Part shown: positions 9,491 to 52,966 of the stretch, in pieces
How positions within the stretch are numbered: position 1 is the first letter of the stretch
Layout: each line of letters starts with the position of its first letter
NCBI RefSeq assembly: GCF_963506605.1
Contig: NC_083279.1
Coordinates: forward strand, 101,308,001-101,372,000
From: Zootoca vivipara
Lineage: Eukaryota
Length of the DNA stretch: 64,000 bases
Direction: 5' to 3'
Translations under genes and position numbers: made by a program
The notes under the pieces: model-generated
Seen by the model: only the letters and a program-made list of their open reading frames with translations
Told to the model about the DNA's origin: nothing
Databases searched by the model: none

Positions 9491-9510
9491 CGACCTCAGC
9501 GCTGACATCA
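9491..9510 (+). promoter_or_regulatory. Tandem CRE-like octamers upstream of ubiquilin-like A
   Basis: CGACCTCA-gcgc-TGACATCA about 180 bp before the ATG; same arrangement before the other two ubiquilin genes. Confidence 0.55.
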
Positions 9511-9691
9511 CAAATCACGGGTTCCACACCAGAAGGTTGTGTAGGGCCTCTGGGCTGGGGGAGGGAGGGGGTGTCAAGAAGAGGGACCCCACAGCTTGCG
9601 TGGTGACAGAGCAAAGGACCACTTTGGAGTGCGATGAGAAGCCAAGCCTGACTTGAGTCTTTGCTTCTTGCTCTCAAATCTTGGCAGCATT

Positions 9692-11188
9692 ATGGTCGAA
9701 AGCCAGAGAATCCCGGGGGTCGACCTCAGAGCCGCCGAGCCCCAGGTTGTTCGGATCATCGTGAAGACTCCGTGGCAGAAGGAAGAGTTTCTGGTCCACA
9801 GGGATATGTTGGTGCGAGAATTCAAGGAACATGTTGCCAGGCATTTCTCCTCTTCTCCTGACCAAATTGTGCTGGTGTATGTCGGAAGGATCTTGAAAGA
9901 CCACAAGACCCTTGGCCAGCATGGCGTCCACCTAGACCACGACGCAACAGTCTACGTGGTCGTCCGGTCTCCCCGGGGGCGCCCATCCAGGCAGGCTTCC
10001 GCCAGCCCTACCAGCACTGCCCCAGATCAGAAGCCTCCTCGGGGAGGTGCTTTCGCCAGCGACGGCCTCCGGGAGCTGACCGCCAGCCTGGGCCTCAACA
10101 CGGCCAACTTTTCAGAGTTCCAGAGCCAGCTGATGTCCAACCCAGACATGATGGTGCAACTGCTGGAGAACCCCTTTATCCAGAGCAAGCTCTCCAGCCC
10201 TGACCTGATGAAGGAGCTGGTCACCAGCAACCCGCAGGTGCGGCAGGTGATGCAGAAAGCCCCTGAGATCAGCCACGTCTTCAGCTCCCCAGAAGGAATG
10301 AGGTTGGTGGTGGAACTGGCAAGGAACCCAGCGGTTGTGAGGGAGTTCATCAAATCACCTCCCCAGGCTGCCACTTGTCCTGGAAGCGTCCCTGGCGGAG
10401 ACAACAACAGTGTCCTTCAGGGTGCATTCCCTGAGGCACAAAGGGGACTAGGGCAGAAGGCCATTCCCAAGCGCTGTGGGGCAAGCCCCTTGCCAGGATC
10501 CCTGGGGGGCCACCCACCCACCTTTGACCACGGTGAAAGGCTTGAGCGGGCCCGAGAGAGGCTGCCTTCTCCCAGACCTTGGCCTCCAAAGCCTGGTGCC
10601 CAGAACGGCAACGATCCGAGCAACGAGGAAAGCGGCGCCTTCAGAGGAGAGACAGGACAACTCGCCTCGGCTACTGTGAGGAACCTCCTCCACCAAATCA
10701 TAAAGCACCTCATGCAGAACCTGGCATCTGGCAGCCCCTCCAGGAGCAGCCCCAACCCGGAGGTGGTGGCCAAGATGGTCCGCAGGAACACCTCCGTGTC
10801 CAGGAGCCCCCGGGGGCAGGCGGCCCCACAGGTCCCAGACCTCCTCCAGCAGATTCAAAGCACAGACATCCTGTTGGCCAACTGGAGCCCCAAGGAGATC
10901 CAGGGGCTGGTAGAAATCCAGCAGAGGCTGCAGGCCCTCGCCACAGACGAGCCGGCAGCGGAGAGGCGAGGCAGATCCGAGCGGCCTGCGCGGAGGGCGC
11001 ACTCCATCACTTCCCTCTGCGACGTCCTGCCCCCCGTCTCCAGGGCAGGGCGCCAGGATGTCACCGCCCAGCAGATCTTGGAGACTCTGGTGGGCGCTGA
11101 CTTCTTAGCTGGCATGAAGACTGCCAGCCGCCTGCGGGGCTCGTCTGCGCAGCCGTCCTCCAAGCAGAAGCGGACGTACAAGCTCTGA
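9692..11188 (+). CDS. Intronless ubiquilin-like protein A (498 aa): UBL and STI1-like regions, no canonical UBA
   Basis: UBL VRIIVKTPWQKEEF...QIVLVYVGRILKDHKTLGQHG; ubiquilin-typical LGLNTANFSEFQSQLMSNPDMMVQLLENPFIQ and PEISHVF; AATAAA at 11302-11307. Confidence 0.9.
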   Translation: MVESQRIPGVDLRAAEPQVVRIIVKTPWQKEEFLVHRDMLVREFKEHVARHFSSSPDQIVLVYVGRILKDHKTLGQHGVHLDHDATVYVVVRSPRGRPSRQASASPTSTAPDQKPPRGGAFASDGLRELTASLGLNTANFSEFQSQLMSNPDMMVQLLENPFIQSKLSSPDLMKELVTSNPQVRQVMQKAPEISHVFSSPEGMRLVVELARNPAVVREFIKSPPQAATCPGSVPGGDNNSVLQGAFPEAQRGLGQKAIPKRCGASPLPGSLGGHPPTFDHGERLERARERLPSPRPWPPKPGAQNGNDPSNEESGAFRGETGQLASATVRNLLHQIIKHLMQNLASGSPSRSSPNPEVVAKMVRRNTSVSRSPRGQAAPQVPDLLQQIQSTDILLANWSPKEIQGLVEIQQRLQALATDEPAAERRGRSERPARRAHSITSLCDVLPPVSRAGRQDVTAQQILETLVGADFLAGMKTASRLRGSSAQPSSKQKRTYKL

Positions 11189-11880
11189 GGCGGAGGGAGA
11201 GGACGGAAGCTGAGCCATCCGCAGAAGGGAGGCTGGGCGGACTCCTGCAGCTGCTGTGCCGATGCGGGAGCTCTGCAAAGGCGTGGATTACATGGTTTGT
11301 GAATAAAAGGCTTTAAATCTTTCAAAAAGTCTCCTCTGTTGGCTTGGGGTAGGGAGGTGTGCCCTCCAAGCACCCCAATTTCCCAGGGACGGTCCTGGAA
11401 TTAGGAAAGTCACCCCAGCTTCTGATTGGATCCCAGAATGTCCCTAGTGCCCCTGCCGGTGCTGTCACCACCAAGCCCATTGCCTCTCTGTGGCCTCTCC
11501 TCCCTTGGGTAGATCATGGCAGCTGCTGAAGAGCGGGGGAGGATGAAGAGAGGCCACCACTGCTAAGGCCCTGCCTGCATGATGCACCAGCTCTGGGGTG
11601 CAGGCAGAAGGCAGAGCCGCCCTGGGCATAAAGAAATGGGGAGTGGAGCACAAGGAGTCTTGACTTTTTTATTTAAAAAAAAGGAAAGGAAAGAAATGAT
11701 TTGTGTGTCCGCATCTAAATTTATTTATCAGTGTGCGTTTTTCTTTTTGTAAATCTACCAAAGAATAAAATGGGGATCAATGGGTTTTCTCACGACGGTA
11801 GAGGGTGTGTGTGTACTGTGTCCTGCTGCTGGTGGGGGGATGCTTGCAAGCTTCCTCCTTCAGATAGGAAATGCTTGGGG

Positions 11881-11882
<2 letters not shown>

Positions 11883-11926
<44 letters not shown>

Positions 11927-12007
11927 TATTATTTATACCGCGCCCATCTGGCCAGGTTCCCCCAGCCACTCTGGGCAGCTTCCAACAAAATATTAAAATA
12001 CAGATAT
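11883..12007 (-). mobile_element. L2 LINE 3' end with (TAA)n tail
   Basis: tttataccgcgcccatctggccaggttcccccagccactctgggc matches the 3' end of the L2 at 43895-44765. Confidence 0.8.
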
Positions 12008-12390
12008 CCCATTGCCTCTCTGTGGCCTCTCCTCCCTTGGGTATATATGGGATATCAACGAGGGTCATTTGGGTGTGTGTGAGAAAAGTCCCTATTTTCA
12101 TCTGAGGAATGTTGGGGGTATGGTATGGATGCAATTTGTTCTCGGTTTTCTTGTTTCATCTTTTTGTAAAATGTTTTGAGGGTGGGTTTAAAAACAACAA
12201 CCACCACAACGATCAAGCGGTGTACATTTTTTTTTAAAATGAAACAAACCATTAAACAAAGTCTATAAGAACTTAAAAAGCTCCTGCTGGGCCAGGCCAA
12301 AGAGGGGGCCATCTAGTCCAGCAGCCTCGTCTCAGCGGCCAAAGTGCTTCGGCTCCTAGGAGCTGGGAATCCCTATGGCTTCAAGGCTGC

Positions 12391-23843: not shown

Positions 23844-24055
23844 AATGCCCTCCCATCAGATGTCAAAGAAATAAACAACTCTCTGACTTTTAGAAGACAT
23901 CTGAAGGTAGCCCTGTTTAGGGAAGTTTTAAATGTTTGAAGTTTTCTTCTGTTTTTAATGTTCTGTTGAAAGCCGCCCAGAGTGGCTGGGGAAACCGAGT
24001 CAGATGGGTGTGGTATGTATGTATGTATGTATGTATGTATGTATGTATGTATGTA

Positions 24056-24086
<31 letters not shown>

Positions 24087-25429
24087 ATGCCTATATTCTC
24101 CAGGACTTCTTGCGGATAGTTGGCTCTTGGTGCTACTCAACCCTGACACTTCCACTAGAACTGACTTCCAAACTATTGGGAGTCTTGCCCTTTCCTAGGT
24201 GTAAATCCCACTGCTGTTGATCATGCAAGAGGCCAAGGCTTGCTGGATCAGGCCAAAGAGGGTTCATCTAGTTTGGTGTCCTGTTTTCACACTGGCCAAC
24301 CCAATGCCCCCGATGGGAAGCCCAAGCCCAGCCAGCACAGGCCCACTAGAATCCTCCTGGTGGGAGCCATTTAATGGACCCCTTTTAATCACCAGAGGTT
24401 TCCAGGAGCAGGGAGCCGCTTCCCTTGCTTCGCCACTGCTTTGTTCTCCTGCACTCACTCACCCTCCCTGGCAGGCATGGTGAAGCCCGCCGGCCACCTG
24501 ACCTTCTCCCGTTGCTGCTATTTTCTCTCTCCCCTGGGCTCCAAAGTCTCTTCCTTCATAGACGTCTACTGTCCGGACTCTCTGCTCCCCATTTGTCAGA
24601 GTACGAGCCACAATGCCTCTCCGGGGAAGAGGAAATCCACAGGCTGGGCGTCGTCCGGAGCGGGAGGGAGTTGTAGGCTAGAAAGATCCATGGGATTCCT
24701 GGCCATTCCTGCTTAATCCCACATTTCCTGCAAAATGTTTTCTACCTGTGATTCTCAGATCATCTTCGGAGAGCCAAGTCCTGGAGGAATGTGGTGCTTG
24801 GGCCATGATCCTTCCTGGAATTCAAAGAAGGAAGGGGCCTCCCTGAACATGGCATGGTGGTATCTCTGAAATGCAAGATCTGCAGAGAGTGTTGCTGGTG
24901 TTTAGGTTGCTAACCTCTTTGGGAAGGGTTCTTATCGAAAACTTGTGTGCATATGCATTAAATCACCAGCCACTTGGTGCCAATAGGGTGGGACTTTGGG
25001 GGCAGGTATCCAGCGCTCCCCCCCCTCAACAGAACGGGGAGGAGGGAAGTACAATGAGACCTGCGCCACTTGGTACCTGGTACCTGGACACAGACCATCC
25101 TTGTCCACCTCGACATTTACCTTTTGCAGCTGCCGGCCTCCTCTGGAGTAAAGACATGGGAGCCGGCTGCATGTCCTCCCCTCTGAACTGCATTTAAGCC
25201 AGGCTCCATGGAGAGCAGCGAGGCCAGCACCAGAAACTTTATTGTTGGGTAATTTACATTTTCGCTTTCTATTTGTGTTCTTAAGCCTAATGGGCTGGGT
25301 TTTTTTTTATAAAAAAAATTGAATTTATTCTGTGTTTGCTAAATGGTTGACTTTGTTATTTTGAACTTACTGGCATGTTCTGCATTTCGTATGTTTGTAT
25401 TCCCAGTGTTCTCTATTTGGATGTTAGGG

Positions 25430-25523
25430 CAAAATAAAAAAATTCTTTCAGTAGCACCTTAAAGACCAACTAAGTTTTTATTTTGGTATGAGCTTTCGTG
25501 TGCATGCACACTTCTTCAGATAC
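25430..25523. mobile_element. Penelope-like element terminal fragment
   Basis: cagtagcaccttaaagaccaactaag...gagctttcgtgtgcatgcacacttcttcag; related fragment at about 53012-53085. Confidence 0.65.
25486..25523 (-). ncRNA. Minimal type I hammerhead ribozyme motif (Penelope type)
   Basis: Minus strand reads GUAU-CUGAAGA-A-GUGUG-CAUG-CACAC-GAAA-GCUC-AUAC: stem I GUAU/AUAC, both core boxes, stem II, palindromic AGCU in place of stem III. Confidence 0.65.
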
Positions 25524-26186
25524 TTCTTCTTGGATGTTAGGGGTTAGCTTTCTGCCAGCCGCTTTGGGCACAACTCACCATGGGAAAGCGGCATGCAAGT
25601 AAAATCAAGCAATCCAACAAGCCTAGCAGAGGTTGCCTGGCCTAATAAGCAAATTCCCAAGAACAGAAGAGGAGCGCTGCTCTTCTCACAGTGTTCTCAA
25701 AGCGTCCTGTTCTCACGGCGACCACCCAGAGCCCCGTGGAAAACCTGCAAGCAAAACTCCAGCACAGGAGCAGCAACGCTCTCCTCTCCTGTGGCTTCCA
25801 GCAACTGGGATCCAGAAACATTGCTGCCCTCAAAGGTGGAGGACAGAGTACAGCCATCTTGGCTGCTCACCACTGAGAGCCCTCAACTCCTCCACAAATT
25901 CATCTAATCCTCTTTTCAAGCCATCCATGTTGGTGGCCGTCACTGCCTCCTGTGGCAGGGAGTTCCACAGTTTAAATCTGTGCTGTGTGAAGAAGGACTT
26001 TCTTTTCTCTGTCCTGAATCTTCCAGCGTCCAGGTCGTTGGATGTCTTTGAATTGAGCAACTTAAAGGCGCTCCCCCACCCCACCCTGCATCACCCCAGT
26101 TAAGTGCACCACTGCACTCCCCTTTATTGGGGAGGGGGGCACCCATGGAGGCCTTGCCCACCGGGGCCTCCCCTCCCAGTTCTCTG

Positions 26187-26206
26187 TGAGGTCAGCGGTG
26201 ACCTCA
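26187..26206 (+). promoter_or_regulatory. Paired CRE-like octamers upstream of ubiquilin-like C
   Basis: TGAGGTCA-gcgg-TGACCTCA within the palindrome ctgtgaggtca..tgacctcacag. Confidence 0.55.
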
Positions 26207-26532
26207 CAGTCCCGGCAGCTTCACAGAAAGGCCAGGTCCTCTGGCAGCAGCAGAGGGGAGAAGAGGAAAATGAAGGTGCCTGCCAGGTTGTGAGCAAGCG
26301 GAAGAAGAAGGCAACATCTCGCTGTTATGTGCGCTCTGGCCTTGGCTAGTGTTGAGACAAAGGGGGGCAGCAGCAGACCACTGGCCCCTTCCCACCTCTC
26401 GCATCCCCTACGGGAACAAGTGGCGGCAGCAGCGGCGGCAGCAGCAGCAGCAGCAGCATCGCCGCCACACCGGAAGGAAAGGAAGACGCCCCTCTTTGCT
26501 CCTTCTTCCTGAACCTCTGCTCCTCAGCAGCC

Positions 26533-28377
26533 ATGTCGGAGAGCAAGAAGCCCCACGGGGCTGCCGCCGGCACCCGTGTCATCAAGGTGACCGTCAAGAC
26601 CCTCAAGCGCAAGGAGCACTTTGAGGTGGCTGAGAGCACCCTTGTGCAGGACTTCAAAAAGCTCATCTCTGAGCGCTTCAAGATGCCCCTGGAGCAGCTG
26701 TCGCTCATCTTTGCTGGCGAGATCCTCAAGGACCAGGACACTCTGGCACAGCACAAGATTGTCAGTGGGTCCAAGGTGCACCTCTTCATCAAGTCGCAGA
26801 GGAGGCTGCCGGGGAACCCCGTGCCCTCCCCGGGAAACACCGGCCCCGCTGCCTTCCTGGCCGTGCCACCCGCAAGCATGCTGCTCTCCAGCGAGGCCTC
26901 CTCGGAGCATAGCCTTGAGCTGTCCGAGTGGAACAACCAGCCGGAAGAGCTGATGGCTTCCTGCCACAAGCTGGTGGCGCAGACCATGGAGAACCTCTTG
27001 CTTCAGATGGTCACTCTGAACCTGGATGCCTCCACCTTGAACAACAACCCGCTTCTCTTGGGCTTCCTTGTTGGCATCACTGGCATGAACGTTCTGGGCC
27101 TGAGCTCCATGGACGTCTCTGACATTGTGGGTGAGGCCCATGAACAGGACATGACCCGCCAGGAGCTCATCAGCGAGGTGATGCAGCACCCTTTTGTGCA
27201 GAACCTCTTTGGCGACACAGAGCAGGTCAGGCAGATGATCATGTCCGTCCCGCAGGTGCAGCAGCTGGCCGAGCAGAACCCCGAGATCAACCACATCCTC
27301 AACAACTCCGAGTTCCTGCGGGAGATGATCGACGTGGCCACCAGCCCGGCGGTGATGGACGAGATCATCAGGAACCACGACCGAGCCCTCAGCAACCTCG
27401 AAAGCATCCCAGGTGGGTACAGTGCTTTGCAGCAGCTCTACAATGACATAGAGGCCCCCATGCTGAACGCGGTCCAAGCCCAGTTCCAGGGCAACACGTT
27501 TGCCCCGTCAGAGAACAAGCCCCCTTCTGGGGGGATCAGCCCTCTGGCCCGGACAGAAAACAGGGAGCCCCTGCCAAACCCCTGGGCTCCTCAGTCCAAC
27601 AACAGTGGCGGCGACAATTTCTGCAACGGTGACCTCAATGGTACCAATAACGATGCTGGTCAGGGCTACATCCTGCTTGCTTTAGGCCCTGGAGTCCAGC
27701 CTGGGCTGAGCAAGTCCGAAAGCATCCAGAACATGGTTCACCAACTCACGGAGAACCTGGAGTTCATGCAGAACATGTCCAATGCCCTCTCGAAGCCCGA
27801 TGGGCCTACTCAGTTATTCCTCAGCCATTGCAACTCCCCCGAGAGTAACGATGCTTCTCTGCCTCAAGGGTGGGTGCAGCAGCTCCCTGCCAAACTGGAG
27901 AGGTCAGAGGCGGCTGCCCTGCTGACCAACCCCAGAGCGGTCCAGGCTCTCCTCCAGCTGCAGATGAGCCTGCTGACCCTGACCAGAGAAGTGCCTGACT
28001 TCCTCCAAGCCTTGACGGACCCGGACGTTGAGCCCGAGAGCATGGAAGACTCCGATGAGGGAGAGAGCCCGTCCTCGGAAGCAGGGAGCCTCATCTCCGC
28101 TGATGAAAGCCTGGAGTTGGAAAGCAGCGAATCCAAAGCAGAAGAGAGAAGACGGGGAAGAAGAAGAAGAAGAGGAGGAAGAGAGGAGGAGGAGGAGGAG
28201 GAAGATGAAGACGAAGAAATGGATCAGCAAGCTCCAGTGGTCCTCTATCAGATGCAGCTGCAGCAGCTCCAAATGATGGGCTTCCAGAACCAGGAACTGA
28301 ACCTGCAAGCTTTAATTGACACAGATGGAGATATTGGTGCAGCGGTTGAAAAGCTTACGAACTCTCGTGCATCCTAG
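26533..28377 (+). CDS. Intronless ubiquilin-like protein C (614 aa; UBL-STI1-UBA; UBQLN3-like by position)
   Basis: UBL IKVTVKT...[17 protein letters not shown]; [24 protein letters not shown]; [12 protein letters not shown]; [37 protein letters not shown]; gccATG start; ATTAAA at about 28550. Confidence 0.95.
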
Positions 28378-31012: not shown

Positions 31013-32197
31013 TTTGTTTGTTTGTTTAGTCGCTTAGTCGTGTCCGATTCTTCATGACCCCATGGACCAGAGCACGCCAGGCACTTTGGTCAGACTCATG
31101 TTTGTAGCTTCGAGAACACTGTCCAACCATCTCGTCCTCTGTCATCCCCTTGTCCTAGTGCCCTCCATCTTTCCCAACATCAGGGTCTTTTCCAGGGAGT
31201 CTTCTCTTCTCATGAGGTGGCCAAAGTATTGGAGCCTCAGCTTCAGGATCTGTCTTTCCAGTGAGCACTCAGGGCTGATTTCCTTCAGAATGGATAGGTT
31301 TGATCTTCCTGCAGTCCATGGGACTCTCAAGAGTCTCCTCCAACACCATAATTCAAAAGCATCCATTATTCGGTGATCAGCCTTCTTTATGGTCCAGCTC
31401 CCATACATCACTACTGGGAAAACCATAGCTTTAACTACACGGACCTTTGTCGGCAAGGTGATGTCTCTGCCTTTTAAGATGCTGTCTAGGTTTGTCATTG
31501 CTTTTCTCCCAAGAAGCAGGCCTCTTTTAATTTCGTGACTGCTGTCACCATCTGCAGTGATCATGGAACCCAAGAAAGTAAAATCTCTCACTGCCTCCAT
31601 TTCTTCCCCTTCTATTTGCCAGGAGGTGATGGGACCAGTGGCCATGATCTTGGTTTTTGTTTTTTGTTTTGGTTGAGCTTCAGACCATATTTTGCGGTCT
31701 TCCCTTTCACCTTCATTAAAAGGTTCTTTATTTCCTCCTCACTTTCTGCCATCAAGGTTGTGTCATCAACATATCTGAGGTTGTTGATATTTCTTCCGGC
31801 AATCTTAATTCCGGTTTGGGATTCATTCAGTCCAGCCTTTTGCATGATGAATTCCTCATATAAGTTAAATAAGCAGGGAGACAATATACAGCCTTGTCGT
31901 ACTCCTTTCACAATTTTGAACCAATCAGTTGTTCCATATCCAGTTTAAGAACTTGCCATAGTTTGCTGTGGTCGACACAGTCAAAGGCTTTTGCCTAGTC
32001 AATGAAGCAGAAGTAGACGTTTTTCTGGAACTCTCTAGCTTTCTCCATAATCCAGCGCATGTTTGCTATTTGGTCTCTGGTTCCTCTGCCCTTTCGAAAT
32101 CCAGCTTGCACTTCTGGGAGTTCTCGGTCCACATACTGCCTAAGCCTGCCTTGTAGAATTTTAAGCATAACCTTGCTAGCGTGTGAAATGAGTGCAA
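31013..32197 (-). mobile_element. BovB (RTE clade) LINE 3' fragment, frameshifted RT
   Basis: Translates GVRQGCILSPCLFNLY, INNLRYVDDTTLMAES, DAFELWCWRRLLRVPW; short-repeat tail. Confidence 0.93.
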
Positions 32198-32521
32198 GGC
32201 TGTGATCCATGAAGGGGAACCTTAACATACAAAAGTTAAAACACTAAAAGAGATTAGAATCGCCTCAGTTTTCTAAACATCTGTGTTGGCTTATCTAAAA
32301 TTGGAATTATTTTTTAGCAGTCACTGAGAAGAGCACAGAGAAGGCCCCTGCTTCATCTCAATAGGCAGGGAGTTCCAAAGCGTAAGCGCTGCCACACTGA
32401 AGGATTCAGCTCCTACAAATGCAGAACAGGTTTTGTGAGGCACCTGTAGTGGTGTCAATTCCACCAAGGCAAACTCGTAGATAAGCTGGTCCCAAGTTTA
32501 AAGAGGCTTAAAGAGAGAATA

Positions 32522-33514
32522 ATAGAATCATAGAGTTGGAAGAGACCACAAGGGCCATCCAGTCCAACCCCCTGCCAAGCAGGAAACACCATCAAAGCAT
32601 TCTTGACATATGCCTCTGCTTAAAGACCTCCAAAGAAGGAGACTCCACCACACTCCTTGGCAGCAAATTCCACTGCCGAACAGCTCTTACTGTCAGGAAG
32701 TTCTTCCTAATGTTTAGGTGGAATCTTCTTTCTTGTAGTTTGAATCCATTGCTCCGTGTCCGCTTCTCTGGAGCAGCAGAAAACAATCTTTCTCCCTCCT
32801 CCATATGACATCCTTTCATATATTTGAACATGGCTATCATATCACCCCTTAACCTTCTCTTCTCCAGGCTAAACATACCCAGCTCCCTAAGCCGTTCCTC
32901 ATAAGGCATTGTTTCCAGGCCTTTGACCATTTTGGTTGCCCTCCTCTGGACACGTTCCAGCTTGTCAGTATCCTTCTTGAACTGTGGTGCCCAGAACTGG
33001 ACACAGTACTCCAGGTGAGGTCTGACCAGAGCAGAATACAGTGGTACTATTACTTCCCTAGATCTAGATGCTATACTCCTATTGATGCAGCCCAGAATTG
33101 CATTGGCTTTTTTAGCTGCTGCATCACACTGTTGACTCATGTCAAGTCTGTGGTCTACCAAGACTCCTAGATCCTTTTCACATGTACTGCTCTCAAGCCA
33201 GGTGTCTCCCATCCTGTATTTTTTTTGCCCAAGTGTAGTACTTTACATTTCTCCTTGTTAGAATTCATCTTGTTTGCTTTGGCCCAGTTGTCTAATCTGT
33301 TTAGGTCATTCTGAAGTGTGATTCTGTCCTCTGGGGTATTAGCCACCCTTCCCCATTTGGTGTCATCTGCAAACTTGCTCAGGATGCCCTCAAGCCCATC
33401 ATCCAAGTCATTGATAAAGATGTTGAATAAGACTGGGCCCAAGACAGAACCCTGTGGCACCCCACTAGTCACTACTCTCCAGGATGAGGAGGAGCCATTG
33501 ATGAGCACCCTTTG
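32522..33514 (-). mobile_element. CR1 LINE, about 1 kb of 3' portion (RT C-terminus)
   Basis: [44 protein letters not shown]. Confidence 0.95.
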
Positions 33515-33966
33515 GCCCAAAAATGGAAACAACAAGTAGTACCAATGAAAGAAGAGGGGCAGATGAAGACGGTGGACTTTGCAGAACTGGTGAAGCTGAC
33601 AGGAAAAATCTGAAACCAGCATGATCAAGTATGGGCAGAGTAATGACTGGAGTAAATTCATACGATATCTGAAAGATCATTGTAAGCAATTAACATCACT
33701 AGCAGGGTTGTCTGAAGACTTGTAATGAGAATTTTCTATCTTTCTCTATTTATTTAAATTTTTGAGATATTCTGTAATGAGTGTAATTAGAATTGGAACA
33801 TGCTTAAATTGCAATGATGAAAAGGTTAATTTTGAAAAGCCATGAGGCGGGCGGGAAGGAATTTGACAGGCTCTAAGAGCCAAGGCGGCATAGTGGATAA
33901 AGATGATGTGAATGTATAATATTAAATGGAAAATAAATAAAAATTATATTAAAAAAGAAAAGAAAA
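33515..33966 (+). mobile_element. Degenerate L1/Tx1-like LINE 3' end
   Basis: A-rich degenerate coding tail ending in AATAAA and an A-rich run; similar relics near 13900-14180 and 50580-51020. Confidence 0.45.
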
Positions 33967-43894: not shown

Positions 43895-44765
43895 TTGAGA
43901 TTGAATCCTGACAAGACAGAAGTACTGTTTGTGGGGGGCAGGAGGCGGGCAGGTGTGGAGGACTCCCTGGTTCTGAATGGGGTAACTGTGCCCCTGAAGG
44001 ACCAGGTGCGCAGCCTGGGAGTCATTTTGGACTCACAGCTGTCCATGGAGGCGCAGGTCAATTCTGTATCCAGGGCAGCTGTCTTCCAGCTCCATCTGGT
44101 ACGCAGGCTGAGACCCTACCTGCCCGCAGACTGTCTCACCAGAGTGGTGCATGCTCTGGTTATCTCCCGCTTGGACTACCGGTACTGCAATGCGCTCTAC
44201 GTGGGGCTACCTTTGAAGGTGACCCGGAAACTACAACTAATCCAGAATGCGGCAGCTAGACTGGTGACTGGGAGCGGCCGCCGAGACCACATAACACCGG
44301 TCCTGAAAGACCTACATTGGCTCCCAGTACGTTTCCGAGCACAATTCAAAGTGTTGGTGTTGACCTTTAAAGCCCTAAGCAGCCTCGGTCCTGTATACCT
44401 GAAGGAGCGTCTCCACCCCCATCGTTCTGCCCGGACACTGAGGTCCAGCTCCGAGGGCCTTCTGGCGGTTCCCTCATTACGAGAAGCCAAGTTACAGGGA
44501 ACCAGGCAGAGGGCCTTCTCGGTAGTGGCACCCACCCTGTGGAATGCCCTCCCACTAGAGGTCAAAGAGAACAACAATTACCAGACCTTTAGAAGGCATC
44601 TCAAGGCAGCCCTGTTTAGGGAAGCTTTTAATGTTTGATGGATTTCTGTATTTTAATGTTTGATGGATCTCTGTATTTTAGAATTTCTGTTTTGTTGGAA
44701 GCCGCCCAGAGTGGCTGGGGGAACCCGGCCAGATGGGCGGGGTATAAATAATAAATTATTATTAT
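43895..44765 (+). mobile_element. L2 LINE 3' portion (young, open frame)
   Basis: RLNPDKTEV, LVISRLDY, QNAAARLV, HITPVLKDLHWLPV; (TTA)n tail. Confidence 0.92.
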
Positions 44766-49375: not shown

Positions 49376-50004
49376 ATAGAATCATAGAGTTGGAAGAGAC
49401 CACAAGGGCCATCCAGTCCAACCCCCTGCCAAGCAGGAAACACCATCAAAGCATTCTTGACATATGCCTGTCAAGCCTCTGCTTAAAGACCTCCAGAGAA
49501 GGAGACTCCACCACACTCCTTGGCAGCAAATTCCACTGCCGAACAGCTCTTACTGTCAGGAAGTTCTTCTTAATGTTTTGGTGGAATCTTCTTTCTTGTA
49601 GTTTGAATCCATTGCTCCGTGTCCGCTTCTCTGGAGCAGCAGAAAACAACCTTTCTCCCTCCTCCATATGACATCCTTTCATATATTTGAACATGGCTAT
49701 CATATCACCCCTTAACCTTCTCTTCTCCAGGCTAAACATACCCAGCTCCCTAAGCCGTTCCTCATAAGGCATCGTTTCCAGGCCTTTGACCATTTTGGTT
49801 GCCCTCCTCTGGACACGTTCCAGCTTGTCAGTATCCTTCTTGAACTGTGGTGCCCAGAACTGGACACAGTACTCCAGGTGAGGTCTGACCAGAGCAGAAT
49901 ACAGTGGTACTATTACTTCCCTTGATCTAGACGCTATACTCCTATTGATGCAGCCCAGAATTGCATTGGCTTTTTTAGCTGCTGCATCACACTGTTGACT
50001 CATG
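49376..50004 (-). mobile_element. CR1 LINE 3' portion, near-identical to 32522-33141
   Basis: Almost the same translation; also shares about 84 bp of flank (49292-49375). Confidence 0.93.
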
Positions 50005-52352: not shown

Positions 52353-52966
52353 TCAGAACTTCCGTAGACACAAAAATCTGCCCAGGGCTTTGAGGATCTC
52401 TTTGGTTTTGATGCTGTAGATGATGGGGTTCAGAATCGGAGGAACCAGGAGGTAGATGTTGGCCATCACCGAGGGCAGCATTGGAGAATTGTGCTTGCTG
52501 AATCTGTTTGCAATAGCCAAACCAATCACGGGAGTATAATAGAGCACGACGGCACAGATGTGGGAGACGCAGGTGCTCAAGGCTTTCAGGTGCCCTTTCT
52601 GGGAGGTTATGTTCAGCACAGTCTTGAGATTCATCACATCGGACAAGAGGATACACAAGGAATCAAACCCAAGTGTGGAAACGACGCAAAGCAGGCCAGT
52701 TTAGCTGTTCCATGTCTGTGCATGGAAGCCGGATTAAATCGGGGTGCATGCAGTAAGGGTGAGTGAGCACATTGGACCTGCAGAATGGCAGCCTCCTTAG
52801 CAGAACAGGGAGTGGGGCCATCAGGAGACCACTTCTCACGGCAATCCCTAATCCTATCCACATAATCCTAAAGTTTGTCAGGATGGTGGTGTATTGCAGG
52901 GGGTTGTAAATGGCCATGAAGCGGTCCAGGGCCATCGCCCAGAGGACCCCTGACTCCATGCTGGAG
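52353..52966 (-). pseudogene. OR51 pseudogene (5' third missing, frameshift and premature stop)
   Basis: Begins at MESGVLWAMALDRF; frameshift and TAA near 52700-52712; C-terminus KALSTCVSH...PPILNPIIYSIKTKEI retained. Confidence 0.92.

Follow-up and report, generated by a model that had tools for sequence, protein, structure and literature searches.

A paired CRE-like promoter element, probably conserved among sauropsids, upstream of three tandem ubiquilin genes in a lizard olfactory receptor cluster

Mouse Ubqln3, Ubqln5 and Ubqlnl are spermatid genes, and this UBQLNL group has been called mammal-specific, sauropsid copies being set apart as UBQLN6 (PMC4230246); human UBQLN3 lies 236 kb from HBE (PMC1910613). 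Among promoter elements, the closest described system is the CRE/NR (cAMP response element/nuclear receptor) site of mGPDH promoter C and testis ACE. In mammalian spermatid promoters, the CpG-free form TGAGGTCA is bound by CREM-tau, as judged by electrophoretic mobility shift assay, and by GCNF, whose binding is abolished by a G-to-C change in the half-site; such CRE-like sites without a CpG lie at -50 +/- 20, single ones are enough, they are enriched in testis promoters together with the extension TGTGAGGT according to a study cited there, and an advantage under methylation has been proposed for them (PMC2853129). Here, we describe a paired CRE-like octamer found upstream of three single-exon ubiquilin open reading frames (ORFs; A, B and C) which share with class I olfactory receptor (OR) genes a stretch of 64,000 nucleotides of Zootoca vivipara (contig NC_083279.1, positions 101,308,001 to 101,372,000), called the window below.

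The locus resembles the mammalian UBQLNL group (UBQLN3, UBQLN5 and UBQLNL) in having three tandem, divergent ubiquilins within an OR cluster next to beta-globin, and the lizard proteins share with that group a layout of UBL and reduced STI1 region. It differs in that lizard A and B have no UBA match and in that a link between gene C and UBQLN3 is not supported. In the available text of the paper on the UBQLNL group, the word 'promoter' has 0 occurrences (PMC4230246). With the CRE/NR element, the lizard modules have in common the CpG-free TGAGGTCA/TGACCTCA forms, the extended TGTGAGGT site, the dispensability of a TATA box and perhaps a position near -50. However, that element is described as a single site (PMC2853129), whereas the lizard modules are doubled or tripled at a 12-bp period, their TGACATCA/TGATGTCA variants lose the nuclear-receptor half-site, and the host is a reptile. 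No description of this paired element, or of CREs in ubiquilin promoters, was found in the literature searched, subscription papers being largely outside its scope.

The initial annotation had reported tandem CRE-like octamers at a 12-bp period before all three ubiquilins, and this observation is real. The modules and the genes that they precede are as follows.

9491..9510, + strand: module A, CGACCTCA-N4-TGACATCA, then CA
17929..17960, + strand: module B, three octamers at a 12-bp period, CGACATCA-N4-TGACATCA-N4-CGATGTCA, then CA
26184..26209, + strand: module C (octamers at 26187-26206), TGAGGTCA-N4-TGACCTCA within a perfect inverted repeat of 11-bp arms, each arm being an extended site TGTGAGGTCA
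9692..11188, + strand: ubiquilin gene A, single-exon ORF, 498 aa, UBL and UBQLN1 domains, UBA without match
18229..19626, + strand: ubiquilin gene B, single-exon ORF of 465 aa with 18280 as its second Met, groups with mammalian UBQLNL-like proteins
26533..28377, + strand: ubiquilin gene C, single-exon ORF, 614 aa, covered by contigs from two RNA-like runs of related species

The CA directly following the last octamer of all three modules and the perfect 11-bp-arm inverted repeat at gene C had escaped the earlier description. Relative to the ATG, module A lies at -201..-182 and module C at -346..-327; module B lies at -351..-320 when counted from the second Met (18280), or at -300..-269 from the first in-frame Met (18229). 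The whole window was scanned at spacers of 0 to 12 for octamer pairs, each octamer being allowed up to 2 mismatches to TGACGTCA and the pair no more than 3. Four pairs were detected (at 9491, 17929, 17941 and 26187), every one at spacer 4 and every one before a ubiquilin, and the other 12 spacers gave none. By comparison, 60 dinucleotide-shuffled windows gave 0.03 pairs at spacer 4 (maximum 1). When only the limit of 2 mismatches per octamer was kept, 5 pairs were found at spacer 4 and no more than 2 at any other spacer. The flanks had been said not to align otherwise, and indeed the 600-bp upstream regions align at the module only: the A-B score was reached by 4 of 200 shuffles, and the other 5 comparisons gave scores not above those of shuffles. 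Upstream stretches of up to 1.5 kb at 8 OR loci (only 177 bp being available for OR1) contained no spacer-4 pair, again as initially stated; OR promoters may sit farther upstream than this. Within the octamers, the centres vary (CC, CA, GG, TG), and the invariant bases are TGA (or CGA) and TCA at the octamer ends, plus the trailing CA.

Conservation was examined in public gene models of orthologues which start too early and read through the promoter, so that their peptide extensions can be back-translated, with codon ambiguity. Twenty-one N-terminal extensions were scored for a codon-compatible fit to TGANNTCA-N4-TGANNTCA. For gene C, all 12 fixed bases are permitted by the pigeon-cluster protein P0368, a fit equalled by 4 of 300 shuffles, and all 10 covered bases by the sea-turtle model P0344 (0 of 300 shuffles), both fits sitting just upstream of a conserved leader block. 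Because the turtle octamer centres fall on Met codons (ATG), both must be TG; in the pigeon cluster they may be CG or TG. For gene A, the snake model P0199 fits 11 of 12 fixed bases, a value equalled by 31 of 300 shuffles; when it is aligned with the promoter of gene A, the best-matching part is the module (1 of 500 shuffles), 8 substitutions being sufficient over the 51 nt around it; at the first base, the snake has T where the lizard octamer has CGA. Partial fits were also obtained: four monitor-lizard models (one locus) start inside module A and, once shifted by 1 nt, fit the spacer, the second octamer and the 8 codons that follow, and a gecko model begins in the second octamer of module C. 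Apart from hoatzin and duck, which give no match (see below), the remaining extensions end short or are chimeric, and module B is reached by none. The distance from module to leader varies (59 nt here, 15 codons in P0368) with a constant spacer; in all, the 4 pairs of the window and the 3 full-length matches in orthologues agree, without exception, in spacer length, but not in spacer sequence or adjoining distances. The proposal of a conserved module with a fixed 4-bp spacing is supported by turtle, pigeon cluster and snake, and in part by monitor lizard and gecko. On this indirect evidence, the chief refuting condition of the initial annotation, a pair not conserved in orthologues, is not borne out.

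The age of the three genes bears on how such a pair could persist. In a protein tree of 44 rows (no UBQLN5 row among them), A, B and C are recovered as three separate clades, each spanning squamates, turtles, and birds or crocodilians (bootstrap 100, with 7 of 7 rows in each), which means that the duplications are older than the lizard-turtle-bird split, about 280 million years ago. Since the three proteins are 24-29% identical in pairwise comparison and each has its own sauropsid-wide clade, neutral survival of the pair is implausible. Gene B joins a marsupial protein and two further UBQLNL-like proteins at 99/97, and the grouping of gene C with UBQLN3, at 80, is not supported. A sauropsid-only A+B+C clade is borderline rejected (p-AU, approximately unbiased test, 0.0497), and a mammal-only clade is not rejected (p-AU 0.228). 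The neighbouring beta-type globin gene and the grouping of gene B speak against a mammal-only origin of the testis ubiquilin cluster. An amniote origin is probable, and the sauropsid-wide trio is probably orthologous to the mammalian cluster.

A rough position for the transcript start of gene C was provided by contigs of two runs from related species, which match the gene at 95-99% identity. The runs carry no tissue label, and their RNA nature is a guess. Two features are relevant here.

26255, + strand: 5' end of a transcript-shaped contig (related species), a rough bound on the start site rather than a mapped one
26245..26340, + strand: conserved non-coding 5' leader block of gene C, matching N-terminal extensions of alligator, turtle, gecko and birds

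No splicing is seen in this contig, which begins at 26255, 49 bp beyond module C, and its length of 2175 nt is that of the gene; the contig of the second run reaches a depth of 344 over gene C. Relative to this contig end, which is not a mapped start, module C lies at -68..-49, in weak agreement with a start site near the module. In raw reads of two same-species RNA runs, 0 reads fell on gene C, which is no test of its expression. No TATA-like box was found after any of the three modules. A 5'-UTR (untranslated region) intron before the ATG, suggested by a pyrimidine tract and AG in A and C, was rejected, as the gene C contig is unspliced. The leader block, which has upstream ATGs at 26270 and 26327, may serve in translational control or as a downstream promoter element.

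In our view, this is a genuine promoter element of deep conservation, which most likely acts as a CREM-type spermatid CRE variant. More specifically, we find it reasonably probable that the paired octamers form a conserved element, likely a spermatid core-promoter switch, bound by side-by-side CREM-type bZIP dimers some 50-70 bp before the start. Invariant TGA/CGA and TCA around a variable centre fit a CRE-type bZIP protein, so that, as far as base patterns can tell, the interpretation in the initial annotation is supported in part, namely in its CRE-type reading. Its mechanism is mostly known already, as CpG-free CRE variants near -50, bound by CREM-tau, have been published for mammals (PMC2853129). 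What is new is the doubled form with fixed spacing kept across sauropsids; CpG-free single CRE variants are not. The lizard module may work like a CRE/NR site but is not classed as one, the GCNF half-site being present in C only. In mouse, Crem knock-out testis shows Ubqln3 down by 4.86 log2 and Ubqlnl by 5.56 log2 (PMC3285179). Historically, a ubiquilin copy in the OR/beta-globin cluster of ancestral amniotes would have carried the paired promoter, which the duplications giving A, B and C would have taken along. TGA..TCA and the 4-bp spacer would have been retained by selection, with drift affecting the two central bases, the flanks and the nearby spacing. CREM-tau in round spermatids would then occupy the CpG-free variants and start transcription without a TATA box, and GCNF could compete for the TGAGGTCA form at gene C. 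A further mouse transcript, ENSMUST00000053743, is presumably Ubqln5. A CREM peak (chr7:111278011-111279059) at -29 of this transcript belongs to the CpG-free CRE class and has a one-mismatch CRE, no half-CRE, and H3K4me3 (PMC3091680).

Several observations weigh against this explanation. The support from orthologues consists of back-translated peptides for genes A and C; the hoatzin extension P0089 spans the stretch where the pair should lie but shows no clean one, and the duck extension P0313 reaches part of this stretch with no match. A scan of metagenomes with an alignment of mammalian UBQLN3 returned 17 loci, none of them a UBQLN3 locus, and hence no support from a mammalian orthologue. 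Testis expression and CREM binding in the lizard are putative. The 5' end of the contig is a rough bound on the start, from runs presumed to be RNA. In the available mouse data, Ubqln3 and Ubqlnl are missing both from the list of bound and changed genes (PMC3285179) and from the CREM ChIP-seq (chromatin immunoprecipitation sequencing) tables, where Ubqln1, Ubqln4, Prm1 and Tnp1 are present (PMC3091680). Moreover, 4706 genes change in the Crem knock-out, 34% of them bound (PMC3285179), and as the knock-outs lose late spermatids, the fall of Ubqln3 and Ubqlnl may be indirect. The argument from CpG content, by which CpG-free variants might work inside a silenced OR domain, is also weakened. As had been pointed out, the central CpG is absent from 7 of 7 window octamers, but 3 of them begin with CG, the spacers contain CpGs, 4 of the 7 have the CpA/TpG form into which plain deamination would turn a canonical CRE, and, per 250 bp, 1-5 CpGs give way to 5-15 on going from each module into its gene. 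Methyl-C can replace T at the first base of AP-1 sites, and CRE binders are perhaps similarly sensitive, as the authors suggest (PMC5389525); that methyl-C might act as a T mimic in the CGA octamers is speculation by analogy.

The fixed spacing is the point on which an alternative with two (or, in gene B, three) independent, additive CREs turns. Here the 4-bp spacer would have been inherited from one ancestral promoter and would have no geometric role. A stretch of 4 bp would seldom be hit by indels, one CRE-like site is enough in mammalian spermatid promoters, and gene B has three units where the others have two. The genomic background also speaks for it. With a pattern fitted post hoc to the three sites and a reversed pattern as control, 1.44 Gb were searched, yielding 240 matches at spacer 4 (control 50), 216 at spacer 3 (control 42) and 88 at spacer 5 (control 50). 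As spacer 3 is about as frequent as spacer 4, the genome at large follows no 4-bp rule, which also counts against the CREM-pair explanation. Even so, the spacer kept its length in every window pair and every full-length orthologue match while its sequence and the neighbouring distances were changing, and we judge purely additive sites unlikely. The same search showed the paired motif to be rare, at about 0.01 per 64 kb, although spacer 4 is not unique. Most of its matches come from repeat families, which raises the alternative that the pairs are remains of a repeat family with a central TGACATCA-N3/4-TGACATCA, or chance, with no promoter role: of 20 background loci picked by hand (18 at spacer 4, 2 at spacer 3), 15 turned out, when matched against one another, to be interspersed repeats around this core. 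Yet the three ubiquilin promoters match no repeat copy outside the core, the module B region is single-copy in the genome, and the pair is conserved in turtle and bird lineages. This alternative is largely refuted, and we give it next to no credence.

Other readers of the same bases have also been considered. AGGTCA half-sites had been proposed to make a nuclear receptor an alternative binder, and a receptor of GCNF or ERR/ROR type could be the main reader of an AGGTCA inverted repeat with 4-bp spacing. Module C, two extended sites back to back, is indeed a perfect AGGTCA-N4-TGACCT repeat, and GCNF binds TGAGGTCA in spermatid promoters (PMC2853129). However, AGGTCA occurs in 2 of 7 octamers, both in module C, and is absent from A and B; both centres must read ATG to encode the turtle peptide, AGG is incompatible with the pigeon-cluster peptide, and it was the G-to-C change in this half-site that abolished GCNF binding (PMC2853129). 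A nuclear receptor is on these grounds at most a co-reader, and as main reader it is very improbable. Two further types of factor read related motifs, namely Maf-type bZIP proteins (GCTGAC, a half-site including the spacer) and TGIF/MEIS-type homeodomain proteins (TGACA/TGTCA). GCTGAC is found on one strand of all three modules, and the turtle, pigeon-cluster and monitor peptides allow it, but the snake peptide loses the GC extension; TGACA/TGTCA is found in A, B and the turtle site, but not in module C. Neither type needs both octamer ends, TGA and TCA, which are kept, and we regard such a reader as quite improbable.

The paired octamers provide a naturally mutagenised test case of 20 bp for the build of a spermatid promoter, since paralogues and orthologues show which bases and which spacing survive. 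They suggest that the lineage of reptiles and birds already used the CREM-based spermatid promoter logic of mice. The testis ubiquilin cluster would then be common to amniotes and not have arisen in mammals. A bolder proposal, which we hold to be doubtful, is that a double CRE with an obligatory 12-bp period is a spermatid code about 300 million years old, older than the mammal-reptile split. Two CREM dimers would bind it cooperatively and indifferently to methylation (no central CpG, and CGA octamers made better sites by methyl-C acting as T) and would open the trio inside the OR/globin domain, trio and switch persisting as mammalian UBQLN5/L/3. The finding is of moderate weight: spermatid promoters with single-site CRE variants are established, and mice lacking Ubqln5 are fertile (PMC6735960).

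Comparison with UBQLN1, the putative parent gene, revealed one canonical CRE about 215 bp before the ATG in the lizard (L029:2008-2015), in a strong CpG island and without a pair; in mouse, a full CRE of Ubqln1 is bound by CREM/CREB (PMC3091680). The lizard CRE parallels the mouse one, but it differs from the modules described here in being single, canonical and within a CpG island. Inheritance of the module from the UBQLN1 promoter was rejected, as alignment to the three promoters gave only chance or low-complexity matches, and no CRE pair was found at the UBQLN4-like lizard locus. An RFX X-box overlapping module A was discarded because it is not kept in the snake peptide. A search of 4 RFX2 supplementary files gave 0 matches for Ubqln3/Ubqlnl (PMC4498915).

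The perfect TGAGGTCA-N4-TGACCTCA palindrome is present at 3 places in the genome, module C included, and no gene was identified in a search at the other two; one of them (L021:5059-5078) lies downstream of several CCAAT boxes in a CpG-richer stretch, perhaps a long terminal repeat. Module C is the sole genomic match to a tight consensus of the pair, and an extended pattern has 20 matches. The repeat families behind most genome-wide matches (loci L001-L011 and L017-L020) are centred on TGACATCA-N3/N4-TGACATCA and partly palindromic, with flanks that are often partly complementary; we take them to resemble hAT-type MITEs (miniature inverted-repeat transposable elements). Repeat-borne pairs are possible germline bZIP docking sites on mobile elements.

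Orthologues of gene A are known in squamates, turtles and ratites. Genes A and B have no UBA domain match or UBA-like tail, and the tail of gene C is UBA-like, below the Pfam threshold. OR genes flank the trio within the window, and an OR pseudogene with a frameshift lies at 52389-52956. A beta-type globin gene stands directly beyond the window end (C4:101372001 onward; locus L024:1-540), and four globin matches in all are spread across 1.07 Mb of the same contig, among OR genes. Fragments of retrotransposon reverse transcriptase, presumably RTE/BovB-like, CR1-like and L2-like, were detected at 31142-33661, 44045-44638 and 49446-50003.

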